In this document: in pieces, positions 2,942-45,496 of the stretch
How the letters are laid out: every line of letters begins with the position of its first letter
Numbering within the stretch: the first letter of the stretch is position 1
Virus record (IMG/VR): IMGVR_UViG_3300033076_000460
Coordinates: 1-59,518 of that record
Direction: 5' to 3' (one strand)
DNA from: a virus
Lineage: Duplodnaviria; Caudoviricetes
Length of the DNA stretch: 59,518 nucleotides
Made by a program: the position numbers and the translations under genes
Notes under the pieces: model-generated
Told to the model about the DNA's origin: nothing
Databases searched by the model: none
The model's input: only the letters and a program-made list of their open reading frames with translations

Positions 2942-3670
2942 TCATTTCGGGTTATTGGCTTCCCATTCCTTGCGGCGGCGGATCATTTCAAAGATGTCGT
3001 CGGTGAGATCCGGGTGCTCCACATCTTGACTGGTTTCGTCCAGCACCTCGGGCAGTGGCTCGGACCTGCGGAACGGACGCTCAAGGTCATCCCAGTCTGA
3101 ATCGGTGATCGGCTTGGCCGCGCCCCGTGCGGCGGCGGGTTCAAAGCCCTTGATCACCAGCACAGGGTCTTCCCCAGCGTAGTTCGGCAGTCGGAACTGG
3201 GGCGGCACGTACCGCTTGTGGTCTGGGAGGCCGTTGCCGTCAAAGCCCGCGATGACCGCCGCGTCCATCAGCCGCTTGATGTGCAGGGGATTCTTGGGGC
3301 GCATGGACTCGATGACCTCGTCGGGCGGGGCGATCGATTCACGTTGGGCTTCTTGCTGGGGGAACAATCCGTTGGGGTTTGGGAGCTTCGCCCGCTTGAC
3401 CATGTACTTGCGGGACTCGGTGTAGTGGTAGGGATTGACGCAGAAGTCCGAGTTGCACTTTCGCACCAGACGTCGGCCATACGGGATGTACTTACAGATA
3501 ACGAATAGGATGCGCACGACCGACGACGTCCCGAATGCAACCGCCATGGGGGAGGCCGGGCCGAGCATGGGCATGGAGCATGAGGACTCGGGCCAGAGGT
3601 AGCAGTCGTCGTGGATCTGGCAGTGGTCGAGCAGGTCGTCGGCAGTTTTGTATTTCAGCGGGCGAGGCAT
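2942..3670 (-). CDS. protein with N-terminal HNH/His-Me finger-like zinc motif
   Basis: DDCYLWP and RKCNSDFCVNPYHY resemble the phage HNH motifs CW.W and H.CDN..CVNP.HL; AAGGAG RBS. Confidence 0.6.
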   Translation of the reverse strand: MPRPLKYKTADDLLDHCQIHDDCYLWPESSCSMPMLGPASPMAVAFGTSSVVRILFVICKYIPYGRRLVRKCNSDFCVNPYHYTESRKYMVKRAKLPNPNGLFPQQEAQRESIAPPDEVIESMRPKNPLHIKRLMDAAVIAGFDGNGLPDHKRYVPPQFRLPNYAGEDPVLVIKGFEPAAARGAAKPITDSDWDDLERPFRRSEPLPEVLDETSQDVEHPDLTDDIFEMIRRRKEWEANNPK

Positions 3671-4819: not shown

Positions 4820-5539
4820 TCACTTGGACGCCTGAACCATGCGGATCAGGATTTCGACCGAGTCAGGTGTGCCAGCTTTGGCCAGCTCGCGAATGCGCTT
4901 TGTGAGCGCATCGGCCAATTGCTTCGCCTCGGCCTTGACCTTGTCGATCTCGGGCTTCGCGCGGGCTTCGAGCTCTTTGGCCAATTCGCCCGCCACGCGC
5001 AGGGACTTCGAATCACCCTTTTCGATCAGCTCGGTGCGCTGGGCTTCCAGCTCGAGCTCCGTCATTTTTGCCAGCTCGGCCCTGCGCTTCTCGGCCTTCT
5101 CGCTCATGCGCTTTGCGTCCTTGCCCTCGGCTCTAGGACGGACAAAGCCCGCATTGCTGATCAATCGATTGATCGAACGACGCCAGACCGCGCCCGCGCT
5201 ATCCTCTTCCATGGACTCCGCGCCCGCATCGTATGCCGCCTTGACGAACACCGCGCGAATGCGCATGAAATCATCGTAGGGCACAGGAATGAGCTTCTTT
5301 GTCTCCGGATCGCGCACAGGCTTGCTGTCATCGTCACAGACGCAAATCCATGGGAGGAGTTGCGCGTCACGCTGTTGCAGAACATCCGTGGCCTGACCGA
5401 TCACGGCTTCGGTTTTTTGCATGTCAAAACCGATCGCCGACACCGTGGCTTCCACGTCTGACCACAAACGACCGTTGAACATCTCAGCCGAGGCCGAGGC
5501 CACTGCGGACACTGCCGCTTGGTTTGCTTGGTTTGCCAT
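4820..5539 (-). CDS. hypothetical helical protein, first gene of the leftward arm
   Basis: MANQANQAAV... with GGGAG RBS; GC3-rich codons; charged coiled-coil C-terminus. Confidence 0.75.
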   Translation of the reverse strand: MANQANQAAVSAVASASAEMFNGRLWSDVEATVSAIGFDMQKTEAVIGQATDVLQQRDAQLLPWICVCDDDSKPVRDPETKKLIPVPYDDFMRIRAVFVKAAYDAGAESMEEDSAGAVWRRSINRLISNAGFVRPRAEGKDAKRMSEKAEKRRAELAKMTELELEAQRTELIEKGDSKSLRVAGELAKELEARAKPEIDKVKAEAKQLADALTKRIRELAKAGTPDSVEILIRMVQASK

Positions 5540-5577
5540 TTTTAACTCCCGATAAGAGGAAGGGCAGGATCGCCCGC

Positions 5578-5607
5578 GAAGAAACCTACACCAATGTAGG
5601 TTTTTTC
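5578..5607. promoter_or_regulatory. 30-bp palindromic element, copy 5 (covariant)
   Basis: GAAGAAACCTACA-CCAA-TGTAGGTTTTTTC; compensatory change relative to the CCGACA/TGTCGG core. Confidence 0.65.
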
Positions 5608-5669
5608 GCAGGACTGCAACGCGGGCATCGCTTTGCTGTCCATGTTTATAACTATACATTGTCTATTAG

Positions 5670-6010
5670 AATGGGGGGGATTTTCCACACAGGGTCACAG
5701 AGCACAGGACAATGTGGGCGCGGGACGCAATGCCCGCAATGCCAAAAAAAATGCGCGACAGTGCCACATCGAACGCAAGGGCGCACCACCGCTCGCGAAG
5801 TGCCACATCGGGCGGTCGGGCCACCCCCACCCCCCAAAACTGCCACATCAGGAGGTACGCATACGTACACAGTGTTTTGCACACCCGATTGGCAATTTTT
5901 ATCATGCAATTCATCATGCACGAGACCCCCCCTCCCCCCTCTGAAATTTGGGGCAAGTCCATCATGCAGCGTGTTCTACAAACACCCCCCGGCTTGGAGT
6001 CCCACAAAAA
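5670..6010. repeat. repeat-rich non-coding region, putative packaging/terminus region
   Basis: TGCCACATC at 5762, 5801 and 5841; ATCATGCA at 5901, 5913 and 5961; long C/G runs; lies at the strand switch just before TerS. Confidence 0.6.
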
Positions 6011-6013
6011 AAT

Positions 6014-6043
6014 TTGCGTACCCTATATTTCTTCTGATACATT
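6014..6043 (+). promoter_or_regulatory. putative rightward promoter
   Basis: TTGCGT-18 nt-TACATT with an extended -10 TG; predicted start near 6050. Confidence 0.5.
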
Positions 6044-6050
6044 TCGTTCC

Positions 6051-6241
6051 GCTGGCTCACAGTAATCTGACCACGACTCCTTTCCTGCTTTCTGTCATTA
6101 GATTGTTGTCAGAAGCTCCCTGAGCCAGCACCAACACGCATGGCCGTGTGCATTCTCCGGAAGCTTCTGTCGAGTAGGGTTTGTTCGGGGCCAGCCGTGT
6201 TGGGAAAGCAGTAAGCCACAGTGGCATCAATTGACGCTGTG
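6051..6241 (+). ncRNA. candidate structured RNA (ncRNA or 5' leader) upstream of TerS
   Basis: Stems 6051-59/6121-29, 6060-70/6098-6108 (3 G-U pairs), 6131-38/6196-6203 and 6217-23/6235-41; two 8-bp pseudoknot pairings. Confidence 0.6.
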
Positions 6242-6278
6242 AGTACCAACGCCCTTCAATGGAGTGCCTTTTTCCTTC

Positions 6279-7085
6279 ATGCAAGTGCCGATCAGCCCTG
6301 ACAAAACCGTCCCTCTCCCAGAAAATCTGGAGCCGGAGGCGGCTACCACCTTACGCGAAAACATGCAGATCGCAGCCAACACGGCAGATCTGATCCATGC
6401 TTTAGGCGGGCGAAGCGAAACTCCAGACACGGTGCAAGTCACCACCAGCGAAGACCCCGATGCGACCGAAGTAACGGGTTCGGCGCAAGCCGCCGACGAC
6501 GTCTTCAAAGCATTCGCCCAGCGGGCGCAGCAACAGTTCGACGAGGCAATGTCCGTCTCGCCCGCCGAGCCAGACAAACCCAAGCGTGGCCGGCCTAGGA
6601 AACATCCAGCTGTTGAAAAACCCAGTGTCAATCCGCCCGCTTTGTACGAAGGAAGTGTAGCTGAGCGTATTTCAGCAATGCTTAAGGAGTACAATAACCC
6701 AATCGTGGCGGACGCCGCCGAGCTGCGGCAGGTCACAATCAACAAGCTGCTGGACTTGTCGATGTGCGGGGATCCGCGCATTGAGATCAAAGCAACGGAG
6801 TTGCTGGGCAAGGTCTCGGATGTGGGGCTCTTCACCGAGAAAACTGAGATCACAGTGACCTATAACAGCGTATCTGACCTTGATCAGATGATTAAGGACA
6901 AAGTTCGCAAAATGTTGATGGCCAATACTGTGGATATCACACCTGTGGTGCTCGATGTGGACAAGGAAATGGGGTTTGAGGAGCAGAAAATCGACGTCGG
7001 AGAGCCCGGTAACCGCAATTTGGACCAAAAATTCGTCGAAAACGTCACTAAATTCCTCGAAAACGGGGAAGGAACTGCCGAATGA
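6279..7085 (+). CDS. terS: terminase small subunit (probable)
   Basis: IKATELLGKVSDVGLFTEKTEIT resembles the Terminase_2 C-terminal motif; ATGA overlap with TerL; start may be GTG at 6264. Confidence 0.65.
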   Translation: MQVPISPDKTVPLPENLEPEAATTLRENMQIAANTADLIHALGGRSETPDTVQVTTSEDPDATEVTGSAQAADDVFKAFAQRAQQQFDEAMSVSPAEPDKPKRGRPRKHPAVEKPSVNPPALYEGSVAERISAMLKEYNNPIVADAAELRQVTINKLLDLSMCGDPRIEIKATELLGKVSDVGLFTEKTEITVTYNSVSDLDQMIKDKVRKMLMANTVDITPVVLDVDKEMGFEEQKIDVGEPGNRNLDQKFVENVTKFLENGEGTAE

Positions 7086-8620
7086 GGCCTGAAACACCGG
7101 TTTCAACCATGGATGCGGAGCTGCAACTGCTGCTCAGCCAGCTAGACAAGCTGCCGGAGGCCCAAAAACGGCTCATTTTGCAGGATTTGGAGCGCCGCGA
7201 GCAGCTCTACGAGAAGCAGCAGGCCCGTGACACCTTCATGGGGTTCGTGAACAAGGTCTGGCCGGACTTCATTGGTGGCCGGCACCACTCGATCATGGCC
7301 AAAGCGTTCGAGCGGGTGGCCCGGGGTGAATGCAAGCGGCTCATCATCAACATGCCGCCCCGCCATACCAAGTCTGAGTTTGCGTCGTACTTGCTGCCCG
7401 CTTGGTTCCTGGGGAAGTTCCCCAACAAGAAGGTGATTCAGACCTCGCACACCGCCGAACTGGCCGTTGGCTTTGGTCGCAAGGTCAGGAACTTGGTGGA
7501 CTCGGACGTTTACCACGACATCTTCCCCACTTTGCAGCTGCAAGCGGACTCCAAGGCGGCGGGCCGCTGGAACACCAGCAAGCAGGGTGACTATTTCGCC
7601 ATCGGTGTGGGCGGTGCTGTGACCGGTAAGGGTGCGCACCTGCTGATCATCGACGATCCGCACTCTGAACAGGAGGCGGCGCTGGCGGCGACCAACCCGG
7701 ATGTGTACGACAAGGTCTATGAGTGGTACACGTCAGGTCCGCGTCAGCGTCTCCAGCCGGGCGGGGCCATTGTGATCGTGATGACCCGCTGGTCGCAGCG
7801 TGACTTGACTGGCCAAGTGATCAAGGCCAGTGCGCAGCGTGGTGGCGAGGAGTGGGAGGTCATCGAGTTCCCGGCCATCCTGCCCTCGGGCAACCCGCTG
7901 TGGCCCGAGTTCTGGAGCTTGCAGGAGTTGCAGGCGCTCAAGGACGAACTGCCCAACTCCAAGTGGCAGGCCCAGTACCAGCAGAACCCGGTGGGCAACG
8001 AGTCGGCCATCATCAAGCGCGACTGGTGGCAGTGGTGGGAAGAGGACAACCCGCCCGAGTGCGAGTACATCTTGCAGGCGTGGGACACGGCGTTTGAGAA
8101 GACTCAGCGTGCTGACTATTCAGCGGGCACGACGTGGGGTGTCTTCACTCACCACAAGGACAACACCAAGAACCTCATCCTGCTCAACACGTACAAGAAG
8201 CGTGTCGAGTTCCCAGAGCTGAAGAAGGATGTGATGTACGAGTACAAAATGTACGAACCAGACACATTGCTCGTGGAGAAGAAGGCGTCTGGAGCGCCGC
8301 TGATCTACGATCTGCGGGCGATGGGGATCCCCGTAAGTGAGTACGTGCCAAGCAGGGGGCAGGACAAAATCGCCCGTTTGAACTCTGTTTCCGACATAAT
8401 CGCGTCGGGAAGAGTGTGGGTTCCTAGGACTCCTTGGGCTGAAGAATTAGTTGATGAAATCGCAGAATTCCCCAACGGAGAGAACGACGACTTGGTTGAT
8501 TCGACAACGCTGGCGCTCATGCGGTTTCGTCAGGGCGGGTTCCTCCGTTTGCCAACGGACGAGCCCGAAGAAATTGAATGGTTCCGTAGCCCCCGCAGAG
8601 AGCGGTACTACACAGTTTAA
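7082..8620 (+). CDS. terL: terminase large subunit
   Basis: MPPRHTKSE Walker A, LLIIDDPH Walker B, VMTRW, YQQNP, nuclease WDTA and NDDLVDS. Confidence 0.97.
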   Translation: MRPETPVSTMDAELQLLLSQLDKLPEAQKRLILQDLERREQLYEKQQARDTFMGFVNKVWPDFIGGRHHSIMAKAFERVARGECKRLIINMPPRHTKSEFASYLLPAWFLGKFPNKKVIQTSHTAELAVGFGRKVRNLVDSDVYHDIFPTLQLQADSKAAGRWNTSKQGDYFAIGVGGAVTGKGAHLLIIDDPHSEQEAALAATNPDVYDKVYEWYTSGPRQRLQPGGAIVIVMTRWSQRDLTGQVIKASAQRGGEEWEVIEFPAILPSGNPLWPEFWSLQELQALKDELPNSKWQAQYQQNPVGNESAIIKRDWWQWWEEDNPPECEYILQAWDTAFEKTQRADYSAGTTWGVFTHHKDNTKNLILLNTYKKRVEFPELKKDVMYEYKMYEPDTLLVEKKASGAPLIYDLRAMGIPVSEYVPSRGQDKIARLNSVSDIIASGRVWVPRTPWAEELVDEIAEFPNGENDDLVDSTTLALMRFRQGGFLRLPTDEPEEIEWFRSPRRERYYTV

Positions 8621-8629
8621 GGACGCATC

Positions 8630-11152
8630 ATGGCAACATTTGGAATGGACAAGGGTCTGTATCAAGCACCGCAGGGCTTGCCCGGGTTTGGCCAGTCAGA
8701 CATCCCGGCAGAGGGTCTTGAGATCGAGATTGAGGATCCCGAGGCGGTTCACATCGGCCTTGGTGGTTTGGAGATTGATCTGGAGAAGAAGCGGCCCAAC
8801 GAGGGCGGTGACTTCGACGCCAACCTCGCCGAGCTGATGGACGACAAAGAGTTGGCCACGCTGGCCACTGATCTGATCGCCGACTTTGAGAAGGACATGT
8901 CCGACCGCAAGGACTGGGTGCAGACCTACATCGACGGCTTGAAGCTCTTGGGCCTGAAGTATGAAGAGCGTACCGAGCCTTGGCAGGGGGCCTGTGGCGT
9001 GTTCCACCCGATGCTCACTGAGTCCGTGGTCAGGTTCCAGTCAGAGGCCATGATGGAGACGTTCCCAGCCATGGGGCCCGTCAAGACCCAGATCGTTGGG
9101 GCCATCGACAAGTACCGTGAAGAGTGTGCCGCTCGCGTGCGCGAGGACATGAACTTCCAGCTGACCGAGGTGATGACTGAGTATCGCTCGGAGCATGAGA
9201 AGCTCCTGTGGGCGTTGCCGATCGCGGGCTCCGCGTTCAAGAAGGTCTACTACGACCCGAGCAAGGGCCGGCAGGTTGCCATGTTCATCCCCGCTGAGGA
9301 CATGGTCGTGCCCTACGGCGCGAGTAACTTGGAGGAGGCCGAGCGCGTGACGCACATCATGCGCAAGACCGAGAATGAGATTCGCAGGCTCCAAGAGGCG
9401 GGCTTCTACGTGGACGTGGAGCTGGGCGAGCCCACTCATGCGTTGGATGACATCGAGAAGCAGAAGGCCGAAGAGGGCGGCATGAGCGCCATCCAAGATG
9501 ACCGCTACCGCGTGCTTGAGATGCACGTCATGCTGGACCTGCCGGGCTTTGAGCACACGGACAAGAAGGGTGAGCCCACGGGCATCGCGCTGCCCTACGT
9601 CGTGACAATCGAGAAGGGAACGACTACCATTCTGGCCATCCGCCGCAATTGGTATGAAGATGACTCGCTCCACACAAAACGCCAACACTTCGTCCACTAC
9701 CAATACATCCCCGGCTTCGGGTTTTACGGATACGGACTCATCCATCTTATTGGAGGTTACGCTAAGTCCGCTACCATGCTCATCCGCCAATTGGTTGATG
9801 CTGGGACTCTCTCGAATCTCCCCGGGGGCCTTAAATCACGGGGCCTTCGCGTTAAAGGTGATGACACACCCATTCAACCGGGGGAATTCAGGGACGTAGA
9901 CGTCCCCTCCGGTTCGATCCGCGACAACATCCTGCCGCTGCCCTACAAGGAGCCTTCGCAGGTTCTCTTCGCGCTGTTCAACCAGATCGTGTCTGAGGGC
10001 CGGGCCTTCGCCTCCAGTGGTGACATGAAGGTGTCGGACATGTCCAGTCAAGCACCGGTGGGCACGACTCTGGCCATCCTTGAGCGCACGCTGAAGGTGA
10101 TGAGCGCGGTGCAGGCCCGCCTGCACTTTGCGATGAAGCAGGAGTTCAAGCTTCTCAAGGTCATCATCGCCGACTACTGCCCCGAGGAGTACGACTACCA
10201 GCCGGTGGATGGCTCGCGTCGGGCTCGCCGCGAAGACTACGACATGGTGGACGTGATCCCCGTGTCCGACCCCAACGCAGCCACGATGGCCCAGAAGGTT
10301 GTGCAGTACCAAGCTGTGCTCCAGCTGGCGCAGACGGCTCCTCAGCTGTACGACCTGCCCCTGCTGCACCGGCAGATGATCGAGGTGCTTGGCATCAAGA
10401 ACGCTGCCAAGCTCGTGCCGATCGAGGACGATGCTGTGCCGATCGACCCCGTGCAGGAGAACCAGAACCTCCTGAACATGCAGTCGGTCAAGGCGTTCAT
10501 GGAGCAGAACCACGAGGCGCACATCGCCGTTCACATGGCCGCGATCCAGAACCCCCGCATCCAGCAGATGATGCAGCAGAACCCCATGGCGCAGCAGATC
10601 TTGGCCGCAGCGATGGCTCACATCAACGAGCACATTGCGTTCCAGATGCGCTTGGAGATCGAGCAGCTCATGGGCACGACGCTGCCCCCGATGGAGAAGA
10701 AGGGCGAGGAGAGCCAGCAGATCCCCCGCGAACAGGCCGACCAGATCGCTGTCATGGCCGCACAAGCCGCCACTCAACTCCTCCAGCGCGACCAGCAAGC
10801 AGCAGCGCAAGCCGCGGCTCAGCAGCAGATGCAGGATCCTGTGGTTCAGATGCAGATGCAAGAACTCCAGCTGCGTCAGCAAGAGGTGCAGCTCAAGGCT
10901 CAGAAGCAGCAGATCGAGGCCGCAGAGAAGGCCGACCGTCTGCGCATCGAGCAGGAGCGCATCAACGCCCAGAAAGAGATTGCCGCCATGCAGGTGGGCG
11001 CTCAGGCCGCTGCCAACAAAGACAAGCTGGCACGTCAGCAGCAGACCGAAGGTATGCGTATGGGCGTGGATCTCGCCAAACACCGTGCGCAGATGGCCTC
11101 ACAGCAACGCGCTTCACAACCCAAACCGCCTTCGAAGAAAGAATCTAAATGA
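8630..11152 (+). CDS. portal protein with Gln-rich coiled-coil barrel
   Basis: Follows TerL; GSAFKKVYYD motif; P22-like long Q/A-rich C-terminus. Confidence 0.9.
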   Translation: MATFGMDKGLYQAPQGLPGFGQSDIPAEGLEIEIEDPEAVHIGLGGLEIDLEKKRPNEGGDFDANLAELMDDKELATLATDLIADFEKDMSDRKDWVQTYIDGLKLLGLKYEERTEPWQGACGVFHPMLTESVVRFQSEAMMETFPAMGPVKTQIVGAIDKYREECAARVREDMNFQLTEVMTEYRSEHEKLLWALPIAGSAFKKVYYDPSKGRQVAMFIPAEDMVVPYGASNLEEAERVTHIMRKTENEIRRLQEAGFYVDVELGEPTHALDDIEKQKAEEGGMSAIQDDRYRVLEMHVMLDLPGFEHTDKKGEPTGIALPYVVTIEKGTTTILAIRRNWYEDDSLHTKRQHFVHYQYIPGFGFYGYGLIHLIGGYAKSATMLIRQLVDAGTLSNLPGGLKSRGLRVKGDDTPIQPGEFRDVDVPSGSIRDNILPLPYKEPSQVLFALFNQIVSEGRAFASSGDMKVSDMSSQAPVGTTLAILERTLKVMSAVQARLHFAMKQEFKLLKVIIADYCPEEYDYQPVDGSRRARREDYDMVDVIPVSDPNAATMAQKVVQYQAVLQLAQTAPQLYDLPLLHRQMIEVLGIKNAAKLVPIEDDAVPIDPVQENQNLLNMQSVKAFMEQNHEAHIAVHMAAIQNPRIQQMMQQNPMAQQILAAAMAHINEHIAFQMRLEIEQLMGTTLPPMEKKGEESQQIPREQADQIAVMAAQAATQLLQRDQQAAAQAAAQQQMQDPVVQMQMQELQLRQQEVQLKAQKQQIEAAEKADRLRIEQERINAQKEIAAMQVGAQAAANKDKLARQQQTEGMRMGVDLAKHRAQMASQQRASQPKPPSKKESK

Positions 11153-44300: not shown

Positions 44301-45496
44301 ACCGCGTCATGCAGGCTCTGTCCAGCTTGTTCCACAACGCTGAACGGTTCAACCGAGAAGTTATGGCGATGTCCGCTTTCCGCACGGCCATGGAGAAGCG
44401 CAAGGACTACGCTGATAAAACCCAAGCATTCAACGAAGCCATCGCTGAAGCCAAGGACGTGACCAACCGCTCGATGTTTGACTACTCGTCCATGAACAAG
44501 CCGCGCTACTTCCAGCACCCGGTTGCTCGTGTGGTGTTGCAGTTCAAGCAGTTCCCGCAGCAGATGACTTTCTTCTTGGCCCACAACTTCCTGAACATGA
44601 TCAAGGGGGCGTCGCCTGAAGTCCGCCGTGAGGCCACCGCCCGATTCGTCGGAACCATGGGCATGGCGGGCATCTTCTCCGGGGCCACCGGTCTGTGGGG
44701 CTTCTCGACCGTAGCCAGCATTTTGAATGCGGTGATCAATGGCTTGGACGACGAGCGGGACGAACCCTTCGACTTTGAGTTGGAGTTCGTCAACTGGGCC
44801 AACGAGACCTTTGGCAAAGGTCTGGGCATGTTCATCTCCCGCGGCATCGGCAACGCGGTCGGCGTGGACTTGGCCAGCCGCACCAAGCTTGACGAGATGT
44901 GGTTCCGCGACGGGCGCAAGAACCAAGACGAGGTGGAAGCCCTGCAATCATTCCTCGTGGAGCAGCTTGGCCCCACCGTTGGGCTTGGCATCAACGCCGC
45001 GCAAGCCGTCAAGCTGTGGAACGAAGGCCACGCCGATCGTGCGCTGGAGATGGTGGCCCCTGCCTTTATCAAGAACCCGCTGGTCGCTGCCCGTTACGCC
45101 CGCGAGGGGGCCAACACGCTTGCAGGTGACCCGCTTGCCGAAGATATTGGGTCTTTCGACCTACTGATGCAGTCCCTCGGTCTGCGCTCTGCGGACATCG
45201 CGGAGCGCCAGTACTACAACATCACGAAGAAGGGGCAGGAACAGGCCATCCTCAAGGAGCGCCAGAACCTGCTGAACCTGTACGGCATCAGCTTCATGGC
45301 CGGCGACTTTGAGTCGAACGACAAGGCGCTTGAGAAGATCATGAAGTTCAACGAGAAGCACCCGTCGGTGGCGATCCCCTCGGACTCGATCATTCGTTCG
45401 ATCGAGCAGCGTGCCAAGAAGTCGGCCATGACAGACCATGGTCTGTACATCGACAAGCGGATGCTGGGGATGAAGAGCGAGAGCTATCTGGACTAA
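38360..45496 (+). CDS. giant polyvalent internal virion protein (GNAT-like, HExxH zincin, PLxRFG-like domains)
   Basis: 2378 aa; QKGRASDVL...LVKWYERNGF; LHEAIH...HEFVAEA; YFPLMRHG. Confidence 0.8.
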   Translation: MANFFDQFDAEQKGRPQGNFFDQFDSGAQPKLGPTESGGFTGSFLESLKERFSTALPAAKLYTGLGDQSEATKQLLAANQASEEAFKQTEFSDIGDSLKQGRYGEALGKTVDKFKEVAGSSFGSMAPAMVAGRGAAMFGGPVAGLTAFGLVSLGSYIADNIGRQKQEQQKLGREGEDIDRLSASAASAGQAALDVFGFKFFKPLGKLVGIEGKEAADRAAMEIVEAATKPNAYKRAVAKGLAEGIAFEVPQEVAQQVLERWQAGLPLDPFTDPEAAKEYAEAAGGALLLGGPMGAGSKVMQTYAARQTPEGQALLSPATQGSVYDTLSKGEEDVAGFEPREDRTGAEMAGQPGAIAPAAGAGELDTSRMVSAGQPAPAAVERETEQPSSLTDDTLERLDTFKRQYQDLRNEALSLMGQGAMTPGQTNQLRMVQRDLSAVVDANADLLRNPELVAQLKNPVFNGMAALPSQGELIPTASAVHRKIAVALTMGRRDPQAAAAFLQGQKERLQQRYDNGEYNQDWARSVAKSYNLTQGEAVQRYQELAKAHLQQQMAEIDQAIADVSRQKSLASRAPEQQQGLFDEDEAAAKLEKAIYGGEASQRKVIDETFGAPAPSTLKPRTASVNFKSNSTTGIVSNESVLGGLRRIAEDDDIASEYPNRVGAVMLTGLDRQDGGQKGRASDVLKALTAWADKNNERLVLMPAASGDLTQADLVKWYERNGFVSRNDGAMERAPAAKQERVAEPTAEESEIQPGLTEKQVGKEGVPAEFSAEHILGTPEGRAVQQLFGGIKSAAGSPSETQKHQSLLQNIAKVFTEYDIISISERAGAGMRAALEFLQNKFGGADAFQNLLSRLGTMSAEAQSKLFKQLRLPDLTTRRGLEDFQREVEKYLEQRTLTGGGVKIPTKSTSAGRGIFPYSEEISVGLNEAKSFPPLESGQPRRPEMRIYDKKYKVSDTRIRQAVKFLRQKIEARLKLTPEDIAAKTYLDNKSRSTFGDVLRDLACDLAMFKLDPKEHGANSLFRGEGGKYAENFRAWLEKNTDKNTIELLDQLIADQTATFEAEKLFDSYVSDYNRKLEKLAEQRQDDYEKRTGKKLTRAPGQRKPRKVVQTKVAEAVGETTAEETEETPDVEAITKNLPQVKWLGLHTAIFRTLEKGDVRGALEIMAGGNGYYSLLAQRLLDAGIDAKVRFIDNSTMESLNDNPMDKRVLDSYISSVSKIVEALAAGDMKEELLAKLKSSDPNLVGNALYQVAGTAKQSGGTKSQIQTLEDAYKFFQNNYMWRGKFAPDKNEIVFRRSNGLTNALFLHEAIHAATASAINKSEKLTGIRKQGYDQLKELFEYSQKALKDLQVTDGSLYGLTNLHEFVAEAMTNPLFQAHLRKLAYKASPFSLWTRFTQAVRKLFGIKNDKSIESNVFNEALLATDALMPGGITGKEDVTGTGGAMAAAFFPKGVANSKTALNNLMTSGSWNEAKANWPRFYNSLKADMRPGVLGFLTMRQMADIVGGRIPQLNNFIRVAEEFMARKNEILTLSGDISKRWEKLQARNPDMSRQLGAVMHRATINEIDPDPQSIFTSQAQRAKDPDLTKMWNALDAEAKAIYRQVRDFYEDRYSEYRQTLNRRLIAMNQYGVSETTINEIRAEFDKARRKGPYFPLMRHGRFWYQVGTGNTREYYMFESQGQLEAHLADNPRKDELTASGSQYREQQDLHARQSQFLKATFDAIDNSSALNAQDLKDSVYQAWLSTQPESSFRNQFVHRQKVAGYSEDALRNFAKSSFHMAYQLARFEHSSEMFSQIAAARLQLKERVKPADPANVKTMRENNELSDYVKEMDRRLTLMLNPTDIGTIPSVLSNIGFIWYLTAPASAIVNVLGGMVIGLPTLVGQQVRLNPNMSYIKATLKALGEMKTVAAEIMRTGFAFEKGARLKDNMLHFPSLTRSSTLSAVDKAAYDRFVADGLIDITATYDQSGLAASPTESYTGTRHRVMQALSSLFHNAERFNREVMAMSAFRTAMEKRKDYADKTQAFNEAIAEAKDVTNRSMFDYSSMNKPRYFQHPVARVVLQFKQFPQQMTFFLAHNFLNMIKGASPEVRREATARFVGTMGMAGIFSGATGLWGFSTVASILNAVINGLDDERDEPFDFELEFVNWANETFGKGLGMFISRGIGNAVGVDLASRTKLDEMWFRDGRKNQDEVEALQSFLVEQLGPTVGLGINAAQAVKLWNEGHADRALEMVAPAFIKNPLVAARYAREGANTLAGDPLAEDIGSFDLLMQSLGLRSADIAERQYYNITKKGQEQAILKERQNLLNLYGISFMAGDFESNDKALEKIMKFNEKHPSVAIPSDSIIRSIEQRAKKSAMTDHGLYIDKRMLGMKSESYLD
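39357..39530 (+). CDS. nested +1-frame small protein (57 aa) inside the giant virion gene
   Basis: AAAGGAG RBS 6 nt before the ATG; MLQDLSQEKIELALKWLDSPVLSPPPQELENLTQVEWYLLDNLLQLLLKEKQNSQVH; GC3 bias moves to this frame. Confidence 0.7.
   Translation: MLQDLSQEKIELALKWLDSPVLSPPPQELENLTQVEWYLLDNLLQLLLKEKQNSQVH

Follow-up and report, generated by a model that had tools for sequence, protein, structure and literature searches.

Hairpins at or near the 5' end of a transcript are known as 5'-terminal stabilizers and as RNase III processing sites, with the ompA 5' UTR, the R sites of T7, and the lambda N leader as examples. The put RNAs of phage HK022 consist of two adjacent conserved hairpins with internal loops, which follow a promoter and act on their own transcript, and Rfam includes a model of the pRNA, the prohead RNA of phi29. 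Another kind of noncoding element, the promoter-early stem-loop (PeSL) of T4-type phages, forms cassettes that Comeau et al. are also said to have treated in 2014. As set out in the text of Arbiol et al. 2010 (PMC2839356), recombination at shared noncoding motifs of these phages swaps the intervening sequence. At the scale of a virus collection, the text of Fremin et al. 2023 (PMC10690425) reports 10,006 candidate structured RNAs obtained from IMG/VR by comparative prediction, among them 14 located ahead of a putative large terminase and some that resemble tRNAs.

Here, we found three consecutive hairpin modules (D1, A, and D3) in the leader of a phage terminase operon; as read from comparison across loci, each module family combines a basal stem conserved in sequence with a fixed noncanonical internal loop, and its apical interior is swapped as a whole between phages. 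The window, meaning the whole 59,518-base IMG/VR record analyzed, is 94% complete by the collection's estimate and has a G+C content of 56%. Its nearest isolates by TerL are podophages of the HTVC023P/HTVC027P type, at about 50 to 56% identity, and a blastn search with positions 5500 to 7100 returned no match among GenBank phages. The last of the minus-strand genes ends at 5659. On the plus strand, TerS starts at the ATG of 6279 to 6281, at which 14 relatives align from residue 1 by tblastn, followed by TerL (7082 to 8620, Terminase_6C) and the portal gene (8630 to 11152); the far end of the block opened by TerS is a gene for a 2378-aa protein that ends at 45496. Since minus-strand genes stop at 5659 and the plus-strand block opens with TerS, the interval 5660 to 6278 is a divergent control region of the late/packaging operon. 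On balance, the source is probably a freshwater podophage of about 60 kb, with positions 6014 to 6262 holding the promoter and 5' leader of its late operon, which runs from terminase to structural genes. The initial annotation had considered such a late-operon leader, and the conservation of promoter, extended -10, and ribosome site in relatives bears this out.

A sigma-70-type promoter can be read on the plus strand at 6014 to 6043 (TTGCGT at 6014 to 6019, an 18-nt spacer, and TACATT at 6038 to 6043), with TG at 6035 and 6036 ahead of TACATT giving an extended -10, TGATACATT, at 6035 to 6043. These are the hexamers from which transcription had been proposed to start at stem P1; they are present and kept in relatives, and the predicted start falls at about 6049 to 6052, at the foot of P1 (6051). 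A simple consensus promoter scan did not list TTGCGT/TACATT because its -35 element is weak (three of six matches), and we relied instead on conservation: TTGCAC/TTGCGT-N17/18-TGnTAYAnT also precedes TerS in relatives with no more than 51 to 59% TerS identity. The other end of the leader (6261 to 6281, plus strand) is formed by a ribosome-binding block, GGAGTGCC at 6261 to 6268, and the ATG of TerS, and the series GGAGTGCC..TTCCTC..ATG is kept both in the alignment and in the listed leaders of relatives.

Between these two anchors, the leader is polymorphic in length. Anchor patterns yielded 57 distinct leaders from 113 loci; of these, 41 measure no more than 45 nt from promoter to ribosome site (31 to 45 nt) and 16 carry inserts of 86 to 297 nt; a first pass had given short leaders in 27 of 36. 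The window's own leader is 238 nt long, and in the insert-bearing leaders shown, the first stem begins about 7 nt past the -10. Because length varies while promoter and ribosome site are kept, the structured part is an optional insert in a leader that is short without it. Judged by sequence, most relatives have an unstructured leader of 31 to 45 nt and the modules are accessory insertions; since most relatives are without any module, module function is dispensable. Sequestration of the ribosome site by the anti-Shine-Dalgarno-like apical motif of D1 was considered and rejected, as its pairing with GGAGU would be limited to 5 bp and relatives without D1 have an identical ribosome-binding block.

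The first module, D1, occupies 6049 to 6132 on the plus strand. Its basal stem (6051 to 6059/6121 to 6129) is P1 of the initial annotation, nine perfect base pairs that recur as the stem of a hairpin family. It is followed by conserved internal loops (C6060, AA at 6064 and 6065, A6114, and CCC at 6118 to 6120), a 3-bp element AGU/GCU (6061 to 6063/6115 to 6117) whose U-G pair is invariant (six of six members), an inner stem (6066 to 6071/6108 to 6113), and a variable apical part (6072 to 6107). We defined the D1 family by the 9-bp basal stem, the internal-loop block ACAGUAAUC / GAAGCUCCCUG, and the covarying inner stem. A covariance model built from five other phages with the window excluded (R2) has its sole match in the window at 6049 to 6132 (69.7 bits, E 4.6e-15), and it adds five members to the six strict ones. 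Across these six, 96.3% of cells are paired and five pairs are changed on both sides, which none of 500 shuffles reach; controls with slid arms are 29 to 40% paired. The window has TCTGAC/GTCAGA as its inner stem, the D1-bearing locus L191 has TCCGAT/ATCGGA, and other members have other complementary pairs. This covariation favors 6066 to 6071 pairing with 6108 to 6113, which replaces the stem P2 (6060 to 6070/6098 to 6108) proposed earlier: its 11 bp with three G-U pairs exist in the window but are not kept in homologues.

Module A (6133 to 6203, plus strand) consists of an outer 8-bp stem (6131 to 6138/6196 to 6203), a fixed 2x2 internal loop (CA at 6139 and 6140 opposite GC at 6194 and 6195), an inner stem (TGGCC at 6141 to 6145/GGCCA at 6189 to 6193), and an apical cassette (6146 to 6188). 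Outer and inner stems together were noted earlier as P3, and they form the stem of a second recurring hairpin family. We defined family A by the 5' frame AACACG-CA-UGGGGAUUG and the 3' frame CAGUCCCCA-GC-CGUGUU, which form a 15-bp interrupted stem around a variable interior. Model R1, from 87 other hairpins with the window excluded, finds 6133 to 6203 on the plus strand as its sole match in the window (32.7 bits, E 4.5e-6). In place of the family's GGGG/CCCC, the inner stem of the window has GGCC/GGCC, so that two pairs are changed on both sides while the CA/GC loop and a U-A pair are kept. In the alignment of 87 sequences, which was seeded with exact 5'-frame words and thus undersamples variation there, 98.3% of the cells of the interrupted stem are paired, and 12 cells show compensating changes on both sides; the CA/GC loop hardly varies, and most sequences (78 of 87) have a U-G wobble. 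None of 500 shuffles reach this pairing, and slid controls are 36 to 48% paired.

The third module, D3 (6198 to 6251, plus strand), shares its GUUGG with the 3' arm of module A. This GUUGG (6199 to 6203) pairs with CCAAC (6246 to 6250) as a closing stem, conserved GAAAGC (6204 to 6209) lies opposite GAGUA (6241 to 6245), and the apical hairpin (6217 to 6223/6235 to 6241; 7 bp with one G-U) had been recorded as P4 and is a stem within this third recurring family, which we defined by the closing stem and the GAAAGC/GAGUA opposition. Model R3, from 15 other phages with the window excluded, again has one match in the window, at 6198 to 6251 (28.2 bits, E 1.2e-6). Motif search gave 17 distinct members, and R3 gave 21 matches in 80 family A loci, among the matches listed. 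The window's D3 is without the GGAUGC / ACGYAGC inner block carried by most members, and it ends 10 nt ahead of the TerS ribosome-binding block.

All six pairings listed in the initial annotation are found at their positions, and their number exceeds chance. Four perfect Watson-Crick stems of at least 8 bp lie in 6046 to 6278, a region picked post hoc, against a mean of 0.33 (maximum of 3) in 2000 dinucleotide shuffles, none of which reach this count. The minimum free energy of the whole leader is modestly unusual (z of -2.18 on the plus strand, with 4 of 200 shuffles as good, and -1.25 on the minus strand), and D1, A, and D3 folded one by one give z values of -3.68, -3.21, and -2.17 on the plus strand and -3.18, -2.42, and -1.11 on the minus strand. 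The complementarity is thus real and nonrandom, but the double-pseudoknot architecture built on it is unsupported. That model held that one integrated RNA of about 190 nt, with two crossing 8-bp helices (6110 to 6117/6162 to 6169 and 6085 to 6092/6204 to 6211) pairing within or between molecules, has a role in packaging. Both complementarities exist, perfect stems are enriched, and the region adjoins the terminase genes; yet neither helix is kept in relatives that retain one of its arms, and comparison resolves the proposed single fold into three autonomous, separately exchangeable hairpins.

For the first crossing helix, 6110 to 6117 sits in the conserved D1 frame and its proposed partner in the replaceable A interior; the partner is absent in the close relatives L130 and L131, which retain 6110 to 6117, as well as in L191 and four other D1-bearing loci, and RNA-library variants carry T6166C with no listed change at 6113. 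For the second, a variant from X19, a riverine metatranscriptome, lacks 4 nt at 6091 within the arm 6085 to 6092, and the GCTTTC-bearing D1 copies of L131 and L193 have no GAAAGC close by. Chance, or a side effect of conserved motifs, is the best explanation of both crossing helices, and pairing of the 8-mers between molecules is likewise unsupported, the proposed pairs lying in replaceable interiors. The likeness once drawn to phi29-type prohead RNA finds no match either: no family of Rfam 15 matches 6014 to 6262 at E up to 10 (a match would have removed the novelty), and the element is missing in most relatives. A packaging RNA with two pseudoknots is consequently exceedingly improbable in our estimate. 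Rfam scans of the leaders or loci of 13 relatives gave no match at E up to 1, and scans of nine array-bearing loci gave only tRNAs and one unrelated int-alpA match at gathering score.

Family A occurs in unrelated phages, often ahead of terminase genes or tRNAs. Its 15-letter 5'-frame word occurs in at least 120 viral contigs, where about 80 chance matches are expected for a 15-mer; the 3' frame follows 18 to 123 nt downstream of 87 of 92 word matches (80 loci among the matches listed), and the two-part pattern with 27 specified bases again hits at least 120 viral contigs. In prokaryotes (185,579 species, one genome each), the pattern is found only in three short MAG contigs, and the minimal hairpin compared with 50,697 GenBank phage records gave two chance-level partial matches and nothing credible. 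Among the matches listed, there are 206 instances in 174 loci. By number of loci, the commonest neighboring proteins are TerS (42), two TerL types (39 and 28), a primosomal protein (34), an HNH endonuclease (32), Erf (29), NinB (23), and two resolvases (21 each). In 37 of the loci, TerL-like matches are 30 to 66% identical to the window's TerL, which indicates that several phage lineages carry the family. The first downstream ORF is most often Dps-like (16 distinct), TerS (14), or TerL (4 and 3), and 78 of 193 copies (about 40%) directly follow another module ending in CCAAC.

Orientation within these loci is strict. The nearest long downstream ORF is co-oriented with the hairpin in 127 cases versus 47, and each of the 33 tRNAs found within 600 nt of a family A hairpin shares its strand, with 30 located downstream. 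Such co-orientation with tRNAs and downstream genes points to selection on one RNA strand. The conserved U-G wobbles of family A and D1 would be C-A mismatches on the other strand and thus identify the plus strand as the RNA, in agreement with the strand favored initially, and the models match that strand. The wobbles also bear on the idea that the inverted repeats are a DNA site, either for packaging (cos/pac) or for a DNA-binding regulator. Although the element lies upstream of TerS, many family A loci have HNH-TerS-TerL neighborhoods, and some contigs end near elements, the arm-to-arm distance ranges from 3 to over 100 nt, up to three tandem copies occur, other copies sit beside tRNAs, the wobbles are strand specific, and the window's element lies between a promoter and a ribosome site. 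We consider a DNA site very improbable.

Taken as RNA, the modules would most likely work where they are made. Transcription from the extended -10 promoter would begin at about 6050, at the foot of D1, and D1, A, and D3 would form three consecutive, independently folding hairpins at the 5' end of the late transcript. Acting in cis on that transcript, such a protein-recognizable hairpin stack may shield the 5' terminus against decay or steer processing of that end; a host or phage factor would use the conserved stems and loops as handles, and the tips would be tolerated cargo. We regard this cis-acting protective or processing structure, recognized by some factor, as somewhat favored. The most likely function would then be that of accessory, horizontally exchanged leader modules for transcript stability or processing.

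A second cis-acting role, in which the D1-A pair is a put-like processive antiterminator for the late operon of about 40 kb or for tRNA arrays, appears unlikely to us. The position directly after promoters would suit it, as would the typical site upstream of terminase and late genes in several phage lineages, and D1 and A do recur as a two-hairpin unit: among seven D1 matches, A comes directly after D1 in four and directly before it in two, and it also directly follows D1 in the window, L191, L308, and L352. A subset of loci moreover has the order of array, terminator, and gene. However, terminator-like sites near family A are as frequent upstream (18 of 164) as downstream (18 of 164), the plus strand of 6046 to 6278 has no terminator-like site, no terminator lies between leader and TerS, and the same operon of close relatives is transcribed without any module.

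The clearest view of how the modules evolve comes from close relatives. L130 and L131, with TerS 99% and 97% identical to that of the window, are letter-identical to it from the upstream region through D1 to the junction ...ACACGCATGG and again from CCAGCCGTGTTGG; the 45 to 90 nt between the junctions are unrelated across the three. In L131, the third module also differs from the window's. L191 keeps the window-like upstream region and the D1 stems, and its D1 and A interiors and its downstream gene are different. The complete A hairpin of L130 has an identical copy in L308, an unrelated array adjoining a different gene, the interior type of L131 is found again in L247, and the window's own A interior occurs across IMG/VR only in the near-identical contig L192. 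The crossovers are located inside the conserved stems. On 100 loci of the phage's own TerL/TerS relatives, R1 found family A in only one (L095), and its absence from the other 99 indicates that the modules were acquired horizontally, from outside the lineage.

This behavior raises the possibility that the stems serve chiefly as linkers for recombination at the DNA level, or are selfish hairpins, and that the RNA they encode has no function of its own. Short stretches that are identical across co-occurring phages would favor the shuffling of cassettes, in the manner of PeSL, and the crossovers inside conserved stems, the identical hairpins of unrelated phages, and the absence of family A from nearly all of the window's own TerL/TerS relatives, a mark of horizontal acquisition, are what linkers would leave behind. 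Among 240 distinct family A hairpins collected, interiors of at least 20 nt fall into 114 clusters among 239 (among the matches listed); the frequent neighbors include Erf, NinB, and Holliday-junction resolvases, and 7 of 38 whole-contig matches, among those listed, lie within 300 nt of a contig end. Near-invariant stems with few compensatory changes also fit recent horizontal spread or DNA-level recombination signals. Homologous recombination, however, has no need of fixed noncanonical loops (CA/GC; GAAAGC/GAGUA), the wobbles and co-orientation indicate selection on one RNA strand, and the elements are confined to transcribed leaders, with D1, A, and D3 each at one site only in the 59.5-kb genome. 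We hold linkers without RNA function to be possible but clearly less probable than the leader function. REP/BIME or MITE-like repeats were rejected as a class for the elements, given a single site in the window for each module and the many interior clusters.

The variable interiors invite a further reading, that the constant frames are scaffolds cut at module boundaries to release trans-acting small RNAs, such as decoys, sponges, or antisense RNAs against the host or rival phages. A constant frame with variable cargo in 114 interior clusters would suit such a system, and so would the arrays of up to three family A copies upstream of tRNA genes, some of which end in terminators and have no gene of their own. 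The inner stem with a 3' unpaired A also resembles an acceptor stem, and a stacked T-arm is found in 5 of 240 interiors; but so few tRNA-like cases, the window's not among them, led us to reject a tRNA-like minihelix, and ARAGORN found no tRNA in the leaders and no tRNA or tmRNA gene in the window or in the loci of 10 relatives. Antisense targets of the leader within the phage's own genome stay at chance level (best match of 12 nt, E 0.6). Structure within the interiors is mild (mean z of -0.69 for 104 nonredundant interiors, 15% below -2), which fits tolerated cargo as well as functional cargo.

Contigs from RNA libraries bear both on the leader reading and on released RNAs. As assembled contigs, possibly with DNA present, they give no reading of RNA ends, strand, or level, and stretches they leave uncovered are uninformative. 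A 224-nt contig of X19 spans 6049 to 6250 with flanks that differ on both sides. In library X18, one contig covers 6113 to 6228 and a second joins 6120 to 6142 to 6192 to 6250 across 118 other letters, that is, another A interior; a contig of X16, identical over 6221 to 6348, spans the junction of leader and TerS. In three RNA libraries, contigs follow the window to the module end at 6250 and diverge directly past it, and short ones (120 to 306 nt) span modules only and break there, as excised modules might; such breaks in assembled contigs cannot be read as RNA ends. Small-RNA release is a rather unlikely account in our judgment. We think it doubtful, though slightly less so, that freshwater phages share an RNA cassette system in which a few scaffolds (A, D1, D3, and others) present more than 100 apical cargos that, once freed as stable small RNAs, serve as decoys or guides in conflicts with hosts or between phages. 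If true, such a system would explain both the turnover of cargo between otherwise identical phages and its movement between unrelated ones.

The locus offers a natural experiment on the role of 5' leader hairpins, since the same operon occurs with and without modules, and it is a concrete case of noncoding cassette exchange between phage lineages. It also yields three well-defined RNA families that are new; they come with models and hundreds of members, and neither Rfam 15 nor the 50,697 GenBank phage records contain them. Should an RNase or RNA-binding protein turn out to use the scaffolds as handles, nature would have supplied RNA display scaffolds ready for use.

Compared with the systems described to date, the modules resemble the stabilizing and RNase III-processed hairpins in their place at the 5' end or as long irregular leader hairpins near a ribosome site, in their probable action in cis, and in their free tips. 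Those hairpins are single and lineage specific, whereas here three conserved families are common to unrelated phages, nested, and swapped. Relative to the put RNAs, compared by description only, the elements here show no terminator association and are optional among close relatives. They share with phi29 pRNA the nature of a phage-encoded structured RNA of about 170 to 190 nt for which a link to packaging was proposed; unlike pRNA, they are part of an mRNA leader, absent in most relatives, and their candidate intermolecular pairs are not conserved, so that with both 8-bp complementarities lost where one arm is kept and no Rfam match, we rejected a prohead RNA of this type.

The nearest concept is the PeSL cassette, in that small conserved noncoding motifs recur within and between phages and nearly identical phages differ by whole cassettes, as the text of PMC2839356 describes them. 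The PeSL stem-loops of that text are terminators flanking protein-coding ORFans; the leader stems here are no terminators, their cargo is 3 to 125 nt of noncoding RNA inside a hairpin, and they carry noncanonical loops and wobbles. We thus rejected a PeSL-type regulatory cassette, as the leader has a promoter but no terminator-like site on the plus strand and noncoding cargo, and only the recombination behavior is common to both. The text of PMC10690425 makes no mention of a modular cassette-swapping architecture; its catalogue may already list A, D1, and D3 motifs. Our literature search returned no description of hairpin families with swappable tips. Structured leaders in phage late operons are already known; what is new is a set of scaffolds that unrelated uncultured phages have in almost identical form and whose tips are replaced in full between genomes that are 97 to 99% identical in TerS.

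Upstream of the late promoter, the window carries a direct repeat, TGCCACATC, in three copies that begin at 5762, 5801 and 5841 (span 5762-5849) with a spacing of about 40 nt, and these copies could be regulator-binding sites or iterons. The triplet is identical in three related viral contigs (L130, L131 and L191).

Farther along the same intergenic region, a block conserved almost to the letter, CACAGTGTTTTGCACA (5868-5905), is also found in distant relatives, and a promoter scan placed a second promoter-like site, TTTGCA-18-TATCAT, in overlap with it; a tandem pair of promoters may serve the late operon. Next come repeats of the form (C/T)ATCATGCA, in three copies at 5900, 5912 and 5960. The intergenic region also holds the C-rich tracts CCCCCACCCCCC (5824-5835), CCCCCCCTCCCCCC (5926-5939) and CCCCCC (5985-5990), and relatives with a TerS identity of only 55-59% keep similar tracts at matching positions.

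Within the leader, the apical part of the hairpin module D1 contains a motif resembling the 3' tail of 16S rRNA, which reads GACTCCTTTCC in the window (within 6072-6096), ACCTCCTTTCT in L308 (within 1936-2014) and CACCTCCTG in L191 (within 1091-1165). Other D1 members carry GCTTTCTGTCA, and the D1 of the window has both motif types.

On the minus strand, an RNAI-like Rfam match at 5576-5658 scored 25.7 bits (gathering score 47; E = 0.029), a weak match that probably arose by chance; it sits at the start of a 279-aa minus-strand ORF. A 242-aa ORF on the same strand (2942-3670) has Cys/His motifs resembling those of HNH-type endonucleases, and Pfam and PHROG searches returned no match for it at the thresholds used.

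Among the matches listed for family A, the hairpins with a conserved basal stem and exchangeable interior, 7 of the 38 whole-contig matches are less than 300 nt away from the end of their contig (L213, L234, L238, L266, L228, L243 and L271), versus about 3 expected, and assemblies may have been broken at shared or hypervariable modules. Contig ends 50-300 nt upstream of TerS are frequent among TerL-relative contigs too.

Elsewhere, non-coding arrays of hairpin modules, 0.5-0.7 kb long, lie directly upstream of tRNA genes (L243, 170-1060; L225, 7960-8470; L308; L352), combining several module types with CCAACAAC-like spacers between them. Recurring array modules further include GCGGGTTAGCGCCGC...CACTGCTTTATGTGAGC and TGGTTCATGTGGTTGCCG...CTCTGGTAATTCCTC, the latter of which can be nested within a family-A stem. 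Directly after a family-A hairpin in L248, a 104-nt Rfam tRNA call (653-756; 40.1 bits) has a long insertion within its body and may represent an interrupted or otherwise unusual tRNA.

Family-A hairpins also recur in one particular setting, seen in L204, L223, L240, L299, L321 and L367, where a strong intrinsic terminator comes after the hairpin and a Dps-like gene (phrog_858) begins 8-20 nt farther downstream. The arrangement recalls a leader RNA and terminator placed before a regulated gene.
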